Part shown: piece by piece, positions 22,927 through 62,518 of the stretch
Numbering within the stretch: the first letter of the stretch is position 1
Layout: each line of letters starts with the position of its first letter
NCBI RefSeq assembly: GCF_003018115.1
Contig: NZ_CP027457.1
Origin: Escherichia coli
GTDB lineage: Bacteria; Pseudomonadota; Gammaproteobacteria; Enterobacterales; Enterobacteriaceae
Reading direction: 5' to 3' (one strand)
Length of the DNA: 64,000 bases
Made by a program: the position numbers and the translations under genes
The notes under the pieces: generated by a model
What the model was told of the DNA's origin: nothing
Databases searched by the model: none
The model's input: the letters and a program-made list of their open reading frames with translations, nothing else

Positions 22927-25900
22927 ATGATGAATAAATCCAATTTTGAATTCCTGAAGGGCGTCAACGACTTTACCTATGCCATCGCCTGTGCGGCGGA
23001 AAATAACTACCCGGATGATCCCAACACGACGCTGATTAAAATGCGTATGTTTGGCGAAGCCACAGCGAAACATCTTGGTCTGTTACTCAACATCCCCCCT
23101 TGTGAGAATCAACACGATCTCCTGCGCGAACTCGGCAAAATCGCCTTCGTTGATGACAACATTCTCTCTGTATTCCACAAATTACGCCGCATTGGTAACC
23201 AGGCGGTGCACGAATATCATAACGATCTCGACGATGCCCAGATGTGCCTGCGACTCGGGTTTCGCCTGGCTGTCTGGTACTACCGTCTGGTCACTAAAGA
23301 TTATGACTTCCCGGTGCCGGTGTTTGTGTTGCCGGAACGTGGTGAAAACCTCTATCACCAGGAAGTGCTGACGCTAAAACAACAGCTTGAACAGCAGGTG
23401 CGAGAAAAAGCGCAGAGTCAGGCAGAAGTCGAAGCACAACAGCAGAAGCTGGTTGCCCTGAACGGCTATATCGCCATTCTGGAAGGCAAGCAGCAGGAAA
23501 CCGAAGCGCAAACCCAGGCTCGCCTTGCTGCACTGGAAGCACAGCTCGCCGAGAAGAACGCGGAACTAGCCAAGCAGACCGAACAGGAACGTAAGGCTTA
23601 CCACAAAGAAATTACCGATCAGGCCATCAAGCGTACACTCAATCTTAGCGAAGAAGAGAGCCGCTTCCTGATTGACGCGCAACTGCGTAAAGCAGGCTGG
23701 CAGGCCGATAGCAAAACCCTGCGCTTCTCCAAAGGCGCGCGCCCGGAACCCGGCGTCAATAAAGCCATTGCCGAATGGCCGACCGGGAAAGATGAAACGG
23801 GTAATCAGGGCTTTGCGGATTATGTGCTGTTTGTCGGTCTCAAACCCATCGCGGTGGTAGAAGCGAAACGTAAAAATATCGACGTTCCCGGCAAGCTCAA
23901 TGAGTCGTATCGCTACAGTAAATGTTTCGATAATGGCTTCCTGCGGGAAACCTTGCTTGAGCACTACTCACCGGATGAAGTGCATGAAGCGGTGCCGGAG
24001 TATGAAACCAGTTGGCAGGACACCAGCGGCCAACAACGGTTTAAAATCCCCTTCTGCTACTCGACCAACGGGCGCGAATACCGCGCAGCGATGAAGACTA
24101 AAAGTGGCATCTGGTATCGCGACGTGCGTGATACCCGCAATATGTCGAAAGCCTTACCCGAGTGGCATCGCCCGGAAGAGTTGCTGGAAATGCTCGGCAG
24201 CGAACCGCAAAAACAGAATCAGTGGTTTGCCGATAATCCCGGCATGAGCGAGCTGGGCCTGCGTTATTATCAGGAAGATGCCGTCCGCGCGGTTGAAAAG
24301 GCAATCGTCAAGGGTCAACAAGAGATCCTGCTGGCGATGGCGACCGGTACCGGTAAAACCCGCACCGCAATTGCCATGATGTTCCGCCTGATCCAGTCCC
24401 AGCGTTTTAAACGCATTCTCTTCCTTGTGGATCGCCGTTCTCTTGGCGAGCAGGCGCTGGGGGCGTTTGAAGATACGCGTATTAACGGCGACACTTTCAA
24501 CAGCATTTTCGACATTAAAGGGCTGACGGATAAATTCCCCGAAGACAGCACCAAAATTCACGTTGCCACCGTACAGTCGCTGGTGAAACGCACCCTGCAA
24601 TCGGATGAACCGATGCCGGTAGCCCGTTACGACTGTATCGTCGTCGATGAAGCGCATCGCGGCTATATTCTCGATAAAGAGCAGACCGAAGGCGAACTGC
24701 AGTTCCGCAGCCAACTGGATTACGTTTCTGCCTACCGTCGTATTCTCGATCACTTCGATGCGGTAAAAATTGCTCTCACCGCCACCCCGGCGCTGCATAC
24801 GGTGCAGATTTTCGGCGAGCCGGTTTACCGTTACACCTACCGTACCGCGGTTATCGACGGTTTTCTGATCGACCAGGATCCGCCGATTCAGATCACCACC
24901 CGCAACGCACAGGAAGGGGTTTATCTCTCCAAAGGCGAGCAGGTTGAGCGCATCAGCCCGCAGGGGGAAGTGATCAACGACACCCTGGAAGACGATCAGG
25001 ATTTTGAGGTCGCCGACTTTAACCGTGGCCTGGTGATCCCGGCGTTTAACCGCGCCGTCTGTAACGAACTCACCAACTACCTTGACCCGACCGGGTTACA
25101 AAAAACGCTGGTCTTCTGCGTCACCAATGCCCATGCCGATATGGTGGTGGAAGAGTTGCGTACCGCGTTCAAGAAAAAGTATCCGCAACTGGAGCACGAC
25201 GCGATCATCAAGATCACCGGTGATGCCGATAAAGACGCGCGCAAAGTGCAGACCATGATCACCCGCTTCAATAAAGAGCGGCTGCCCAATATTGTCGTAA
25301 CCGTCGACCTGCTGACGACCGGCGTCGATATTCCGTCGATCTGTAATATCGTGTTCCTGCGTAAAGTACGCAGCCGTATTCTGTACGAGCAGATGAAAGG
25401 CCGCGCCACGCGCTTGTGCCCGGACGTGAATAAAACCAGCTTTAAGATTTTCGACTGCGTCGATATCTACAGCACGCTGGAGAGCGTCGATACCATGCGT
25501 CCGGTGGTGGTGCGCCCGAAGGTGGAACTGCAAACGCTGGTCAACGAAATTACCGATTCGGAAACCTATAAAATCACCGAAGCGGATGGCCGTAGCTTTG
25601 CCGAGCACAGCCATGAACAACTGGTGGCGAAGCTCCAGCGCATCATCGGCCTGGCCACGTTTAACCGTGACCGCAGCGAAACGATAGATAAACAGGTGCG
25701 TCGTCTGGATGAGCTATGCCAGGACGCGGCGGGCGTGAACTTTAACGGCTTCGCCTCGCGCCTGCGGGAAAAAGGGCCGCACTGGAGCGCCGAAGTCTTT
25801 AACAAACTGCCTGGCTTTATCGCCCGTCTGGAAAAGCTGAAAACCGACATCAACAACCTGAATGATGCGCCGATCTTCCTCGATATCGACGATGAAGTGG

Positions 25901-26439
25901 TGAGTGTAAAATCGCTGTACGGTGATTACGACACGCCGCAGGATTTCCTCGAAGCCTTTGACTCGCTGGTGCAACGTTCCCCGAACGCGCAACCAGCATT
26001 GCAGGCGGTGATTAATCGCCCGCGCGATCTCACCCGTAAAGGGCTGGTCGAGCTACAGGAGTGGTTTGACCGCCAGCACTTTGAGGAATCTTCCCTGCGC
26101 AAAGCGTGGAAAGAGACGCGCAATGAAGATATCGCCGCCCGGCTGATTGGACATATTCGCCGCGCTGCGGTGGGCGATGCGCTGAAACCGTTTGAGGAAC
26201 GTGTCGATCACGCGCTGACGCGCATTAAGGGCGAAAACGACTGGAGCAGCGAGCAATTAAGCTGGCTCGATCGTTTAGCGCAGGCGCTGAAAGAGAAAGT
26301 GGTGCTCGACGACGATGTCTTCAAAACCGGCAACTTCCACCGTCGCGGCGGGAAGGCGATGCTGCAAAGAACCTTTGACGATAATCTCGACAGCCTGCTC
26401 GATAAATTCAGCGATTATATCTGGGACGAGCTGGCCTGA
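22927..26439 (+). CDS. hsdR: Type I restriction enzyme R subunit (family IA), SF2 helicase/translocase plus nuclease
   Basis: 1170-aa ORF MMNKSNFEFLKG...; motifs MATGTGKT (Walker A) and VVDEAHRG (DEAH); matches EcoKI-type HsdR as recalled. Confidence 0.95.
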   Translation: MMNKSNFEFLKGVNDFTYAIACAAENNYPDDPNTTLIKMRMFGEATAKHLGLLLNIPPCENQHDLLRELGKIAFVDDNILSVFHKLRRIGNQAVHEYHNDLDDAQMCLRLGFRLAVWYYRLVTKDYDFPVPVFVLPERGENLYHQEVLTLKQQLEQQVREKAQSQAEVEAQQQKLVALNGYIAILEGKQQETEAQTQARLAALEAQLAEKNAELAKQTEQERKAYHKEITDQAIKRTLNLSEEESRFLIDAQLRKAGWQADSKTLRFSKGARPEPGVNKAIAEWPTGKDETGNQGFADYVLFVGLKPIAVVEAKRKNIDVPGKLNESYRYSKCFDNGFLRETLLEHYSPDEVHEAVPEYETSWQDTSGQQRFKIPFCYSTNGREYRAAMKTKSGIWYRDVRDTRNMSKALPEWHRPEELLEMLGSEPQKQNQWFADNPGMSELGLRYYQEDAVRAVEKAIVKGQQEILLAMATGTGKTRTAIAMMFRLIQSQRFKRILFLVDRRSLGEQALGAFEDTRINGDTFNSIFDIKGLTDKFPEDSTKIHVATVQSLVKRTLQSDEPMPVARYDCIVVDEAHRGYILDKEQTEGELQFRSQLDYVSAYRRILDHFDAVKIALTATPALHTVQIFGEPVYRYTYRTAVIDGFLIDQDPPIQITTRNAQEGVYLSKGEQVERISPQGEVINDTLEDDQDFEVADFNRGLVIPAFNRAVCNELTNYLDPTGLQKTLVFCVTNAHADMVVEELRTAFKKKYPQLEHDAIIKITGDADKDARKVQTMITRFNKERLPNIVVTVDLLTTGVDIPSICNIVFLRKVRSRILYEQMKGRATRLCPDVNKTSFKIFDCVDIYSTLESVDTMRPVVVRPKVELQTLVNEITDSETYKITEADGRSFAEHSHEQLVAKLQRIIGLATFNRDRSETIDKQVRRLDELCQDAAGVNFNGFASRLREKGPHWSAEVFNKLPGFIARLEKLKTDINNLNDAPIFLDIDDEVVSVKSLYGDYDTPQDFLEAFDSLVQRSPNAQPALQAVINRPRDLTRKGLVELQEWFDRQHFEESSLRKAWKETRNEDIAARLIGHIRRAAVGDALKPFEERVDHALTRIKGENDWSSEQLSWLDRLAQALKEKVVLDDDVFKTGNFHRRGGKAMLQRTFDDNLDSLLDKFSDYIWDELA

Positions 26440-57833: not shown

Positions 57834-57868
57834 GCCGGATGCGGCGTGAACGCCTTATCCGGCCTACA
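57834..57868. repeat. REP element in the uxuB-uxuR intergenic region
   Basis: GCCGGATGCGGCGTGAACGCCTTATCCGGCCTACA read directly. Confidence 0.6.
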
Positions 57869-57952
57869 ACGGGCAATTTTACGGCCCGTTAATCTCAAAC
57901 TATACCATTAGCACTGGAAGTTGGCACGTACAGGTGGACAAAAAAACGAAAA

Positions 57953-57984
57953 CTGGTCAACCAAATATCAGTTTGATTGACCAG
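57953..57984. promoter_or_regulatory. Inverted repeat CTGGTCAA-N16-TTGACCAG containing a TGGTCAACCAAAT UxuR/ExuR-like half-palindrome, upstream of uxuR
   Basis: Read directly; resembles the recalled UxuR/ExuR operator core TTGGTnnACCAA. UxuR autoregulation is established knowledge. Confidence 0.4.
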
Positions 57985-58008
57985 TAAGTCTGTAGGGTAA
58001 TCAGTTAG

Positions 58009-59549: not shown

Positions 59550-60734
59550 TTAACGGCTAAAGAAAGCGCGCTGGATCGCCAGTTCGACACCGCGAACTTC
59601 GGCCAGGCCTTTAAGACGACCAATTGCGGAGTAACCTGGGTTGGTTTTCTTCTTCAGGTCGTCCAGCATCTGATGACCGTGGTCCGGACGCATCGGGATC
59701 AGGTCTTCTTTGCCTTCCGCTTTACGACGGTGTTCTTCTTCAACAATCGCTTTCACCACTTCGTACATATCAACGTCACCGTTCAGGTGCGCCGCTTCGT
59801 GGAAGGTTTTCGGGTTATCTTCACGCATGGTGGAGCGCAGATGGGTGAAGTAAATACGCGGACCGAACTGCTTGATCATATCAACCAGATCGTTGTCAGC
59901 ACGCACGCCGTAGGAACCGGTGCACATGGTGAAACCGTTCGCCATGCTGTTTACGGTATCAACCATCCACTGCATATCTTCAATGGTGGAAACAATGCGC
60001 GGCAGGCCGAGGATCGGGCGCGGCGGATCGTCCGGGTGAACAGCCATACGCACGCCGACTTCTTCAGCAACTGGAATAATCGCTTTCAGGAAGACGGCAA
60101 AGTTTTCGCGCAGCTTCGCTTTGTCGATATCTTTGTACAGCTCCAGGTGTTTACGGAACTGGTCGAGGGTGTAGCCTTCTTCCGCGCCCGGAAGACCAGC
60201 AATGATGTTACGGGTCAGACGCGCTTTGTCTTCGTCGCTCATAGTGGCGAAGCGAACAGCAGCCTGAGCAATTTCTTCTTCGGTGTAATCCGCTTCCGCG
60301 CCTGGACGTTTCAGGATATGCATTTCGAATGCAGCGAATTCGATCTGGTCGAAGCGCAGCGCTTTGGAGCCGTCTGGCAGCACGTATTCGAGGTCAGTAC
60401 GGGTCCAGTCGAGCACCGGCATGAAGTTGTAGCACACGGTGCGAATGCCGCACTGCGCCAGGTTGCGCAGAGTCTGCTGATAGTTAGCGATCCACTGCTC
60501 ATAGTTGCCAGTGTGGGTTTTGATATCTTCGTGAATTGGTACGCTTTCTACGACAGACCACACCAGGCCTGCGTCTTCAACGATCGCCTTGCGTTTGAGG
60601 ATCTCTTCTACGGACCATACTTCGCCGTTCGGGATATGGTGCAGCGCGGTAACCACGCCAGTTGCGCCCGCCTGACGGACATCAGCTAAAGAAACCGGAT
60701 CGTTTGGGCCGTACCAGCGCCAGGTCTGTTCCAT
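59550..60734 (-). CDS. uxuA: D-mannonate dehydratase
   Basis: Translation from [26 protein letters not shown]... (394 aa); start set at the internal Met of the ORF-track entry. Confidence 0.9.
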
Positions 60735-60895
60735 GATTTTTCCTCTTTCACATAGTGGGTTCCACAGCAAAGAGACGCGGAACCCTGGAGTTGTTTAGGT
60801 ATCCGGATGAACAACCAGACCGCAGCCGTGGCGTTGCATCGGATGAGATGGCGTATAAGTTCTACCTTTTGGTAAGACATGTCAACCCGAATTCT

Positions 60896-60913
60896 GAAAT
60901 TGGTTAACCACAT
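60896..60913. promoter_or_regulatory. UxuR/ExuR-type operator (GAAATTGGTTAACCACAT) in the uxuA-gntP divergent region
   Basis: Near-perfect match to the recalled palindromic core AAATTGGTTAACCAATTT. Confidence 0.5.
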
Positions 60914-61004
60914 CACAAGAATTTCACTCTCCTGGTTGTTGCTGCAAATTGCAGCAAAAGGTAATCGATGGTTATTGATCATAGGATGTGACATTCATCG
61001 CAAC

Positions 61005-61020
61005 AATGGTTGACCAATTT
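61005..61020. promoter_or_regulatory. Second UxuR/ExuR-type operator (AATGGTTGACCAATTT) upstream of gntP
   Basis: Palindromic TGGTTGACCA core read directly. Confidence 0.5.
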
Positions 61021-61073
61021 ACATAACATGTCGCCCAAAATAACAACGGTTCAACCAGGTAAGGTAAAACGTT

Positions 61074-62417
61074 ATGCATGTGCTTAACATTCTCTGGGTG
61101 GTATTCGGCATTGGTCTGATGCTGGTACTGAATTTGAAGTTCAAAATCAATTCAATGGTGGCTTTGTTGGTGGCGGCGCTGTCCGTCGGGATGCTGGCGG
61201 GCATGGATTTGATGTCGCTGCTGCACACCATGAAAGCGGGCTTCGGCAACACGCTGGGGGAACTGGCTATCATCGTGGTGTTCGGTGCGGTCATCGGTAA
61301 ATTGATGGTCGACTCCGGCGCGGCTCACCAGATAGCGCATACGCTGCTGGCGCGTCTCGGTCTGCGCTATGTACAGCTGTCGGTGATTATCATCGGCCTG
61401 ATTTTTGGTCTGGCGATGTTCTATGAAGTGGCCTTTATCATGTTAGCGCCGCTGGTTATTGTCATTGCCGCCGAAGCTAAAATTCCGTTCCTGAAACTGG
61501 CGATCCCGGCAGTAGCAGCTGCCACTACCGCACATTCACTGTTCCCACCGCAGCCGGGTCCGGTGGCGCTGGTGAATGCTTATGGCGCAGATATGGGGAT
61601 GGTTTATATCTATGGCGTACTGGTGACGATCCCAAGTGTAATCTGCGCAGGTCTGATCCTGCCGAAGTTCCTCGGCAATCTTGAGCGCCCAACGCCATCA
61701 TTCCTGAAAGCAGATCAACCGGTAGATATGAACAATCTGCCCTCTTTCGGCGTTTCGATTCTGGTGCCGCTGATCCCGGCGATCATTATGATCTCTACCA
61801 CCATCGCCAATATCTGGCTGGTAAAAGATACCCCTGCCTGGGAAGTGGTTAACTTTATCGGTTCCTCGCCGATTGCAATGTTTATTGCGATGGTGGTTGC
61901 ATTCGTACTCTTTGGCACCGCACGTGGTCATGACATGCAGTGGGTGATGAACGCTTTTGAAAGTGCGGTGAAGAGCATTGCAATGGTGATTCTGATCATC
62001 GGTGCGGGTGGCGTGCTGAAGCAAACTATCATCGACACCGGCATTGGCGACACCATCGGCATGTTGATGTCCCACGGCAATATCTCGCCCTACATCATGG
62101 CATGGCTGATCACTGTGCTAATTCGTCTGGCGACGGGTCAGGGTGTCGTTTCGGCGATGACCGCCGCCGGGATTATCAGTGCTGCAATCCTTGATCCAGC
62201 AACTGGTCAGCTGGTTGGCGTGAATCCGGCGCTGCTGGTACTGGCGACGGCTGCGGGTTCCAACACCCTCACCCACATTAATGATGCCTCATTCTGGCTG
62301 TTCAAAGGTTACTTTGACCTGTCAGTAAAAGACACGTTGAAAACCTGGGGACTGCTGGAGCTGGTCAACTCCGTGGTTGGGCTGATTATTGTGCTGATTA
62401 TTAGCATGGTAGCGTAA
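61074..62417 (+). CDS. gntP: Fructuronate/gluconate transporter (GntP family)
   Basis: 447-aa polytopic membrane ORF; synteny with uxuAB. Confidence 0.9.
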
Positions 62418-62482
62418 AAGAACACCAGAGCCTGCCAATGGCAGGCTCAGTTCGGATTGTCGGCAAAGTGCGCTTTGTTTAT

Positions 62483-62518
62483 GCCAGATGCGACGCTGAC
62501 GCGTCTTATCTGGCCTAC
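62483..62518. repeat. REP element between gntP and fimH, after a gntP terminator-like hairpin (AGCCTGCCAATGGCAGGCT at about 62433..62452)
   Basis: GCCAGATGCGACGCTGACGCGTCTTATCTGGCCTAC read directly. Confidence 0.6.

Follow-up and report, generated by a model that had tools for sequence, protein, structure and literature searches.

The control region between the divergent uxuA and gntP genes of Escherichia coli does hold a perfect palindrome, which occurs in nearly all E. coli and only in Escherichia. Comparison of alleles suggests that it varies as little as the known operators do, an island of conservation that looks selectively preserved. We propose this palindrome as a candidate operator of an additional factor, a reading to which the sequence comparisons lead us to give a little under an even chance, and we regard it as a modest lead for one extra regulatory input. 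The control region itself, its two UxuR boxes and its CRP sites were already known from the literature and are confirmed here; they are not new, whichever reading of the palindrome holds.

The uxuAB and gntP genes allow E. coli to grow on glucuronate and fructuronate released in the gut. The textbook picture of their control is a simple circuit of UxuR/ExuR and CRP. If a genus-specific dyad is maintained by selection in the middle of this region, that picture would still lack one regulatory input, in the bacterium that has been studied best.

The divergent uxuA-gntP control region

In the window, which is the whole 64-kb stretch of E. coli DNA that was analysed, the control region spans 339 bp from 60735 to 61073, equivalent to positions 4551297-4551635 of MG1655 (NC_000913.3) in reversed orientation. 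It shows 100% identity to an E. coli chromosome, and a single occurrence was found in 5404 of 5426 complete E. coli genomes. Four intergenic differences (60932, 60959, 60982 and 61030) separate the window from K-12, none of them within the palindrome. The preliminary description had proposed a divergent uxuA-gntP control region carrying two hexuronate-repressor boxes and a palindrome. RefSeq annotation bears out the arrangement, with uxuA on the minus strand from 60734 and gntP on the plus strand from 61074, and all three sequence features lie where they had been placed. The UxuA translation is 394 aa long. The RefSeq annotation of the K-12 records places uxuB and uxuR on the far side of uxuA and fimH on the far side of gntP.

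To compare genera, we looked for the divergent uxuA-gntP arrangement in one genome of each species that has GntP. It was found in 3 further Escherichia lineages, eleven Citrobacter, Klebsiella spallanzanii and 1 Enterobacteriaceae MAG, and 16 intergenic regions were aligned. The features referred to below are as follows, with genome counts taken from this alignment.

57951-57966, no strand: third UxuR-type box (AACTGGTCAACCAAAT), upstream of uxuR; pattern search, 2 mismatches
60732-60734, minus strand: start codon of uxuA (D-mannonate dehydratase); transferred to the window from the RefSeq annotation of K-12 and MG1655
60880-60885, minus strand: -35-like hexamer TTGACA of the uxuAB promoter, read from the sequence; inside the block ACATGTCAACC, invariant in 16/16 genomes
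60898-60913, no strand: UxuR-type operator 1 (AATTGGTTAACCACAT), uxuA side; 12/14 match to AATTGGTNNACCAATT, core kept in 15/16 genomes
60902-60917 (centre 60909.5), no strand: CRP-like site 1 (GGTTAACCACATCACA), overlapping operator 1; consensus scan, 8/10 of the core
60939-60957 (centre 60948), no strand: perfect 9-1-9 palindrome TTGCTGCAA-A-TTGCAGCAA, exact in the window; candidate operator
60987-61002 (centre 60994.5), no strand: CRP-like site 2 (TGTGACATTCATCGCA), upstream of gntP; consensus scan, 9/10 of the core
61004-61019, no strand: UxuR-type operator 2 (CAATGGTTGACCAATT), gntP side; 12/14 match, kept in 16/16 genomes
61024-61029, plus strand: putative -10-like hexamer TAACAT of the gntP promoter; kept in 15/16 genomes, TAATAT in Escherichia sp.
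61074-61076, plus strand: start codon of gntP (fructuronate transporter); RefSeq annotation, 447 aa in the list of open reading frames

UxuR-type operators flank the spacer

The left box (60896-60913) reads GAAATTGGTTAACCACAT, with a perfect TGGTTAACCA core inside, and the right box (61005-61020) reads AATGGTTGACCAATTT and contains TGGTTGACCA. A search of the window for AATTGGTNNACCAATT at up to 2 mismatches gave 3 matches against 0.27 expected, a number reached in 0 of 100 shuffles. All three matches are in expected places, namely at operators 1 and 2 and upstream of uxuR; the last one belongs to the same regulon and lies outside the uxuA-gntP intergenic region. Both operators have the core TGGT-NN-ACCA, with a gap of 2 nt between GT and AC. 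Since UxuR motifs are described with a 2-nt and ExuR motifs with a 3-nt gap (Suvorova et al. 2015, PMC4494728), both boxes are of the UxuR type, not generic UxuR/ExuR boxes. The earlier view of them as hexuronate-repressor operators is supported by their conservation across genera, and is refined in this respect. An ExuR operator (TGGT-NNN-ACCA) was considered and rejected, as the best match to AATTGGTNNNACCAATT (10/14, at 60898-60914) is the 2-nt box read out of register.

In genomic SELEX, purified UxuR gave a single peak, at the gntP/uxuA spacer only, and its binding was weakened by glucuronate (PMC5934670). At the resolution of that experiment the two boxes are not separated, and the palindrome as the bound site is also possible. 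No E. coli site for gntP or uxuA is given in the supplements of PMC4494728. The UxuR/ExuR-CRP hexuronate regulon (Rodionov 2000; Bates Utz 2004; Suvorova 2011/2015) comprises the same genes (uxuAB, gntP and uxuR), and its operators and CRP sites are found here as expected, with the 2-nt gap and the third box upstream of uxuR, and with no difference as regards the boxes. The palindrome appears in none of the descriptions of the system that were accessible.

CRP-like sites and promoter geometry

Multiple CRP sites have been assigned to the gntP-uxuAB spacer, and both gntP and uxuA are known CRP targets recovered by genomic SELEX (PMC3105977). Two CRP-like sites were found by consensus scan. In CRP-like site 1 the TCAC(A/G) half is kept beyond the UxuR box in the cross-genus alignment. 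CRP-like site 2 keeps TGTGA unchanged in 16/16 genomes, as well as the TC-CA positions of its other half, and UxuR box 2 comes directly after it. The block ACATGTCAACC, which contains the -35-like hexamer of the uxuAB promoter, is invariant across Escherichia, Citrobacter, K. spallanzanii and the MAG, and UxuR box 1 follows 11 bp further on. From this geometry we infer a uxuA transcription start near 60848. On the other side, the position of TAACAT would fit CRP-like site 2 at about -41.5 of gntPp. A simple sigma-70 scan of the control region gave no strong promoter, as is expected for CRP-dependent promoters. In the literature search, an RpoH holoenzyme SELEX peak also surfaced.

The layout suggests how UxuR may act on each promoter. 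On the uxuA side its operator would overlap a CRP site near -61.5 of uxuAp, and therefore UxuR would block activation by CRP. On the gntP side the operator would stand between the CRP site at about -41.5 and the -10 region, and therefore UxuR would occlude RNA polymerase.

The length of the spacer is kept across genera

The alignment of 16 intergenic regions resolved into two conserved modules, one proximal to uxuA and the other to gntP. Conservation of the operators, CRP-like sites and promoter cores extends over four genera and was seen in Escherichia, in ten Citrobacter genomes and in K. spallanzanii, whereas the intervening spacer is not conserved. The operator centres are 106 bp apart, or about 10 helical turns, in 4/4 Escherichia lineages, 104-105 bp in ten Citrobacter, and 159 and 219 bp in two other genomes; the distance is thus 104-106 bp in 14/16 genomes. 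The spacer is 74-77 bp long in 13/16 genomes, and this stretch of about 75 bp is unalignable between genera (38% identity between E. coli and C. werkmanii). Because the distance is kept while the sequence cannot be aligned, length and not sequence is the spacer property that the genera have in common. The fixed operator distance is consistent with cooperative or looped repression by UxuR.

The gal repressosome offers a likeness, with O_E and O_I about 11 turns apart and HU between them, compared with two UxuR operators about 10 turns apart here. As in gal, the operators flank or overlap promoters, their spacing is kept while the spacer sequence drifts, and a distinct element lies inside the would-be loop. 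Here, unlike in gal, looping by the repressor is presumed, and the centre of the palindrome lies some 10 bp away from the midpoint.

A single-copy palindrome restricted to Escherichia

The palindrome corresponds to 4551413-4551431 of MG1655 and is perfect in K-12. Position 60959 has two common alleles, and exact searches with a 30-nt word for each of them found the palindrome with its standard flanks in 4188 and 1085 genomes, so that no fewer than 5273 of the 5426 complete E. coli genomes carry it. Random sequence should yield by chance, per 64 kb, some 1.3 perfect palindromes whose arms are 9 nt long and whose gap is 0-3 nt, so the mere existence of one in 64 kb is not significant. The window holds two distinct ones, at 60939-60957 and as a hairpin just after gntP (62428-62448). 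Within the 339-bp intergenic region, the expectation is about 0.007. It is the comparative evidence, not the symmetry itself, that lifts the palindrome above chance. An inverted-repeat search at arm length 12 reported nothing, its arms being 9 nt.

Across 5401 genomes the palindrome is single-copy, with a median of one place per genome, and no copies at up to 4 mismatches were found in 114 kb, made up of the 64-kb window and 50 kb of K-12 sequence next to it. A dispersed repeat, either REP/BIME-like or the end of a mobile element, is ruled out by this single place per genome and the lack of near copies. The palindrome is absent from the Citrobacter, K. spallanzanii and MAG spacers, where no palindrome beats shuffled controls. 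Since the element is absent outside Escherichia, the common UxuR/CRP logic works without it. A literature search for the palindrome or its 11-bp core matched only unrelated primers.

By the putative transcription starts, the palindrome would lie at about -100 from that of uxuA and about -88 from that of gntP. Its distances to the operator centres are 42.5 and 63.5 bp, or about 4 and 6 turns.

The palindrome is less variable than its surroundings

We compared 12 Escherichia alleles, obtained from the species scan, an E. coli strain sample and one metagenome pattern scan that excluded the common allele. Of the seven hits of the metagenome scan, one was unrelated and matched by chance. The divergent alleles represent distinct lineages, with gntP identities to the window of 89-94%. 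The spacer alleles of strain E69 and E. albertii are absent from the 5426 E. coli genomes, in which the best identities were 83% and 79.5%. Variability among the 12 alleles was distributed as follows.

60920-60938, no strand: left spacer part; 12/19 columns vary, at least 0.95 events per site, unalignable with Citrobacter
60939-60957, no strand: palindrome; 3/19 columns vary
60958-60986, no strand: right spacer part; 17/29 columns vary
Operators, CRP sites and promoter/5'-UTR segments: 0.11-0.17 of columns vary

The 3/19 variable columns of the palindrome, against 29/48 in both flanks (Fisher p=0.001), constitute moderate evidence of conservation, because the test is post hoc and about five independent lineages are involved. 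When a 19-bp window was slid over the spacer, the minimum of variability fell exactly at the palindrome. Four-fold degenerate sites of the same lineages were 63% variable in gntP and 38% in uxuA. The probability of at most 3 variable columns of 19 is below 0.0001 on the gntP rate and 0.037, which is marginal, on the uxuA rate. The left spacer part evolves at least as fast as the four-fold synonymous sites of gntP. By this comparison with four-fold sites, the flanks are roughly neutral and the palindrome is below neutral.

Changes within the palindrome fall mainly on one symmetric pair

Five substitution events were inferred within the palindrome, all of them at 60942/60954 or at 60951, and none is compensatory.

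60942, C to T: E69 and L093
60942, C to A: L091 and L094
60951, G to A: common to the E69-like and L091-like lineages
60954, G to A: E. albertii
60954, G to T: strain SX4

The symmetry-related pair 60942/60954 takes 4 of the 5 events, in four different lineages or strains. This pattern argues for a protein site and not a hairpin, because the changes fall mainly on one symmetric pair and are never compensatory. A dimer site with one unread position per half-site would predict it, with TTGnTGCAA-A-TTGCAnCAA as the effective motif, whereas selection on a hairpin or cruciform would be expected to leave compensating changes. We propose that the palindrome arose in the Escherichia lineage and was kept there by selection, and that an additional dimeric DNA-binding protein bound to it may modulate one or both of the CRP-dependent promoters. 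The suggestion that the palindrome serves another regulator is favoured by the conservation island in Escherichia and by the uncompensated symmetric changes, and it is weakened by the lack of a match to any tested regulator and by the absence of the element from Citrobacter and Klebsiella.

Symmetry without function, or symmetry as structure

A functionless palindrome that perpetuates itself is a serious rival because of an extension in E. albertii and of degraded cores in other lineages. In E. albertii the dyad is 29 bp long, ACTCTTTGCTGCAA-A-TTGCAACAAAGAGT, with 14-nt arms and 13/14 pairs, and this form was seen in the type strain and three metagenome contigs. Four changes clustered in the left flank, together with one in the right, gave rise to five extra complementary pairs, and the chance of such an extension of symmetry is about 0.001 per lineage. 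Clustered substitutions that raise the complementarity of the arms are the expected signature of template-switch mutation at quasi-palindromes. Such sites are said, in work by Ripley and by Lovett, to be hotspots of template-switch mutation in E. coli, and the E. albertii allele carries the same kind of clustered, complementarity-raising substitutions. The palindrome might then be a neutral quasi-palindrome, produced by chance or by an old hairpin-templated (template-switch) mutation, in which switching keeps or extends the symmetry without any function. This we consider possible, though rather unlikely. It accords with the 1.3 or so such palindromes expected per 64 kb, with a spacer constrained across genera in length only, and with the absence of the element outside Escherichia. 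It accords also with the degraded cores of the E69-like and L091-like lineages, two Escherichia lineages in which strain E69 and three metagenome alleles are down to 7/9 pairs through two uncompensated changes, and with the E. albertii extension, which resembles template-switch mutation and is not needed by a typical dimer site. The hotspot process would explain the origin and extension of the symmetry, but it does not explain the low rate in the core or the missing paired changes. Variability in the 19 bp is markedly lower than in either flank and at synonymous sites; homogenisation by template switching should give paired compensatory changes, of which there are 0 in five events; and the variable positions are concentrated on one symmetry-related pair instead of being spread along the arms. 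If the palindrome is neutral, it is a clean natural example of a spacer constrained in length and not in sequence, and of palindrome growth by template switching. If it is an operator, the E. albertii form would document a functional operator extended by a template-switch mutation.

The symmetry could also act as structure, either as a DNA cruciform that absorbs negative supercoiling between the promoters or as an RNA hairpin in a transcript initiated upstream. As single-stranded DNA, the palindrome forms a stem of 8 bp closed by a loop of 3 nt (-8.3 kcal/mol, z = -3.3 relative to shuffled sequences); it lies between divergent promoters, and its E. albertii version is a longer, near-perfect inverted repeat. 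However, none of the five events is compensatory, and they leave stem mismatches in four lineages (C-A, A-G and C-T, plus one T-G). A T-run or terminator-like context is lacking, a terminator scan of 60700-61110 was empty, and the intergenic region has no Rfam match. Lying upstream of both putative starts, the palindrome is probably not transcribed, and arms of 9 bp are short for cruciform extrusion. We therefore find a structural role hard to credit. For an intrinsic terminator or a structured RNA element in particular, the missing T-run, compensatory changes and Rfam match rule it out.

Candidate factors for the palindrome

The preliminary description had held that the palindrome does not match the UxuR/ExuR box, and this proved correct, as the consensus scan found no GT..AC core in it. 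Consensus scans for CRP, FNR, UxuR, ExuR (with its 3-nt box), GntR, KdgR and a CytR octamer pair gave no acceptable match at the palindrome, so that the check for an already assigned site gave it to none of the tested regulators. For CRP, the best overlapping 16-mer (60943-60958) matches TGTGA-N6-TCACA at 6/10 only. The glucuronide repressor GusR (UidR) was rejected, since the dyads of uidR-uidA (CGAACGTTCG; CTGTG-N5-CACAG) are unrelated to the palindrome. So was the IclR-type protein YjhI: its gene lies at a distance of 26 kb, in the E. coli-specific element KpLE2, and the dyads upstream of it, GTTCAGCATGCTGAAC and TGTTGCAACA, differ and do not match. Judged by eye against their consensus sequences, sigma-54 -24/-12 elements, LexA, even-centred boxes of the PurR/Cra type, HexR, NsrR and MarR misfit in spacing or sequence.

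The nearest described motif is that of CytR, which might bind the palindrome, contact nearby cAMP-CRP and anti-activate uxuAB and/or gntP; if true, this would tie hexuronate use to nucleoside availability. CytR recognises TGCAA-N2-3-TTGCA or TTGCAA, usually as imperfect inverted repeats between two CRP sites and with flexible spacing of the half-sites (PMC3454398). The inner 11 bp of the palindrome, TGCAA-A-TTGCA, consist of perfect pentamers and loosely resemble this motif; the palindrome lies between two CRP-like sites, and both promoters are CRP targets (PMC3105977). In these respects it is like the CytR operators of deoP2, udp and cdd, which combine inverted pentamers between CRP-type sites with CRP-dependent catabolic promoters (PMC3454398). 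The details fit poorly, however. The pentamers are spaced by 1 bp instead of the described 2-3 bp, for which octamers lie 0-4 bp apart, or about one turn; the half-sites of the octamer GTTGCATT match at 5/8 each and overlap; and the invariant outer TTG/CAA triplets lie outside the CytR motif. Between the centres of the CRP-like sites there are 85 bp (about 69 bp between their edges), compared with about 52 bp in CytR operators and with a rule of 10-40 bp (PMC3454398). No strong CRP-like site lies within about 27 bp of the palindrome and none of at least 7/10 lies nearer than these two, the best being 6/10 at 60913-60928. By chance alone, 64 kb should contain TGCAA-N0-3-TTGCA 0.83 times. Conservation across Enterobacterales holds for known CytR sites and not for the palindrome; uxuA and gntP are missing from PMC3454398, and the literature search found no paper with them as CytR targets. 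A CytR operator is accordingly improbable.

A more specific form of the operator reading, which we put forward tentatively and think rather doubtful, is that the palindrome is an Escherichia-gained operator of a regulator new to hexuronate catabolism, which may be an uncharacterised transcription factor, or CytR or Fis in an unusual geometry. If true, uxuAB and gntP, which have been implicated in gut colonisation, would have gained an input specific to the genus. The palindrome shows a partial pattern that we take to be Fis-like, with G/C at +/-7, an AT-rich centre and variable positions at +/-6; it fails at +/-3 and +/-4. It differs from the KdgR consensus, to which it has no sequence similarity, and no cognate regulator gene lies nearby. 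In architecture, it shares an odd-centred dyad with tetO (TetR) and with boxes of the KdgR/IclR type (AATGAAACA-N-TGTTTCATT), operators of 19-21 bp. Like such operators of dimeric repressors, it is a 9-1-9 dyad that occurs once, in the control region of an operon for sugar acids.

Spacing of the UxuR operators and drift of the intervening sequence

In Escherichia, 106 bp separate the two UxuR-type operators that enclose the palindrome in the uxuA-gntP control region; in ten Citrobacter genomes the distance is 104-105 bp. The sequence between them (window positions 60914-60986, and the equivalent spacers in comparison loci L002-L014, L038, and L050) could not be aligned between the genera, and within a genus it varied at about the rate of the four-fold degenerate sites of gntP. 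This comparison suggests that the spacer may be under length or helical-phase constraint, possibly arising from looping between the two UxuR operators. The four-fold degenerate sites were variable at 63% in gntP (61074-62417) versus 38% in uxuA (59550-60734) across the same Escherichia lineages, the uxuA set having one lineage fewer. The higher variability of gntP may reflect recombination or hitch-hiking beside fimH.

In E. albertii, as represented by the type strain (L003) and three metagenome loci (L088, L090, and L092), the arms of the palindrome are 14 nt long, ACTCTTTGCTGCAA-A-TTGCAACAAAGAGT, with 13 of the 14 positions paired, and the extended dyad occupies the equivalent of window positions 60934-60962. 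The extension arose from four clustered substitutions in the left flank and one in the right, a pattern that looks like template-switch (quasi-palindrome) mutation. Citrobacter genomes (e.g. loci L038, L009, and L050) carry a conserved block of their own, ATGTAAACATGTAACGCAA, immediately 5' to the CRP site on the gntP side, where the Escherichia counterpart reads GGTTATTGATCAGAGGA. This block may be a different lineage-specific element within the same spacer.

Among the binding peaks listed from genomic SELEX with the RNA polymerase sigma-32 (RpoH) holoenzyme is one of intensity 5.0 (cut-off 3.0) that falls in the gntP<>uxuA spacer (PMC5493296). Inspection of the intergenic region (60735-61073) by eye found no convincing sigma-32 promoter.

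Palindromes and repeats in neighbouring regions

A second perfect palindrome, GAGCCTGCCAATGGCAGGCTC, is located at 62428-62448, 11 nt past the gntP stop codon. It lacks a T-run on the gntP strand and has a TTCTTTT run on the opposite strand. As gntP and fimH are convergent, the hairpin between them may be a terminator. REP-type repeats of the form GCC(G/A)GATGCG...CTTATC(C/T)GGCCTACA were present in two gaps:

62462-62515, REP-type repeat, gntP-fimH gap
57836-57870, REP-type repeat, uxuB-uxuR gap

The repeat at 62462-62515 matched Rfam naRNA4 below threshold, scoring 31 bits where the gathering score is 59.5.

Upstream of uxuR (57951-57990), a partial second box, GATTGACCAGTAAG, comes 15 bp after the UxuR-type box AACTGGTCAACCAAAT; the two could form a tandem operator through which autoregulation acts. 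Upstream of yjhI, an uncharacterised gene of the IclR family, lie a 16-bp perfect palindrome, GTTCAGCATGCTGAAC, and the 10-bp TGTTGCAACA, within 25804-26105 of the MG1655 sequence L095 (MG1655 4525804-4526105); both are candidate autoregulatory operators.
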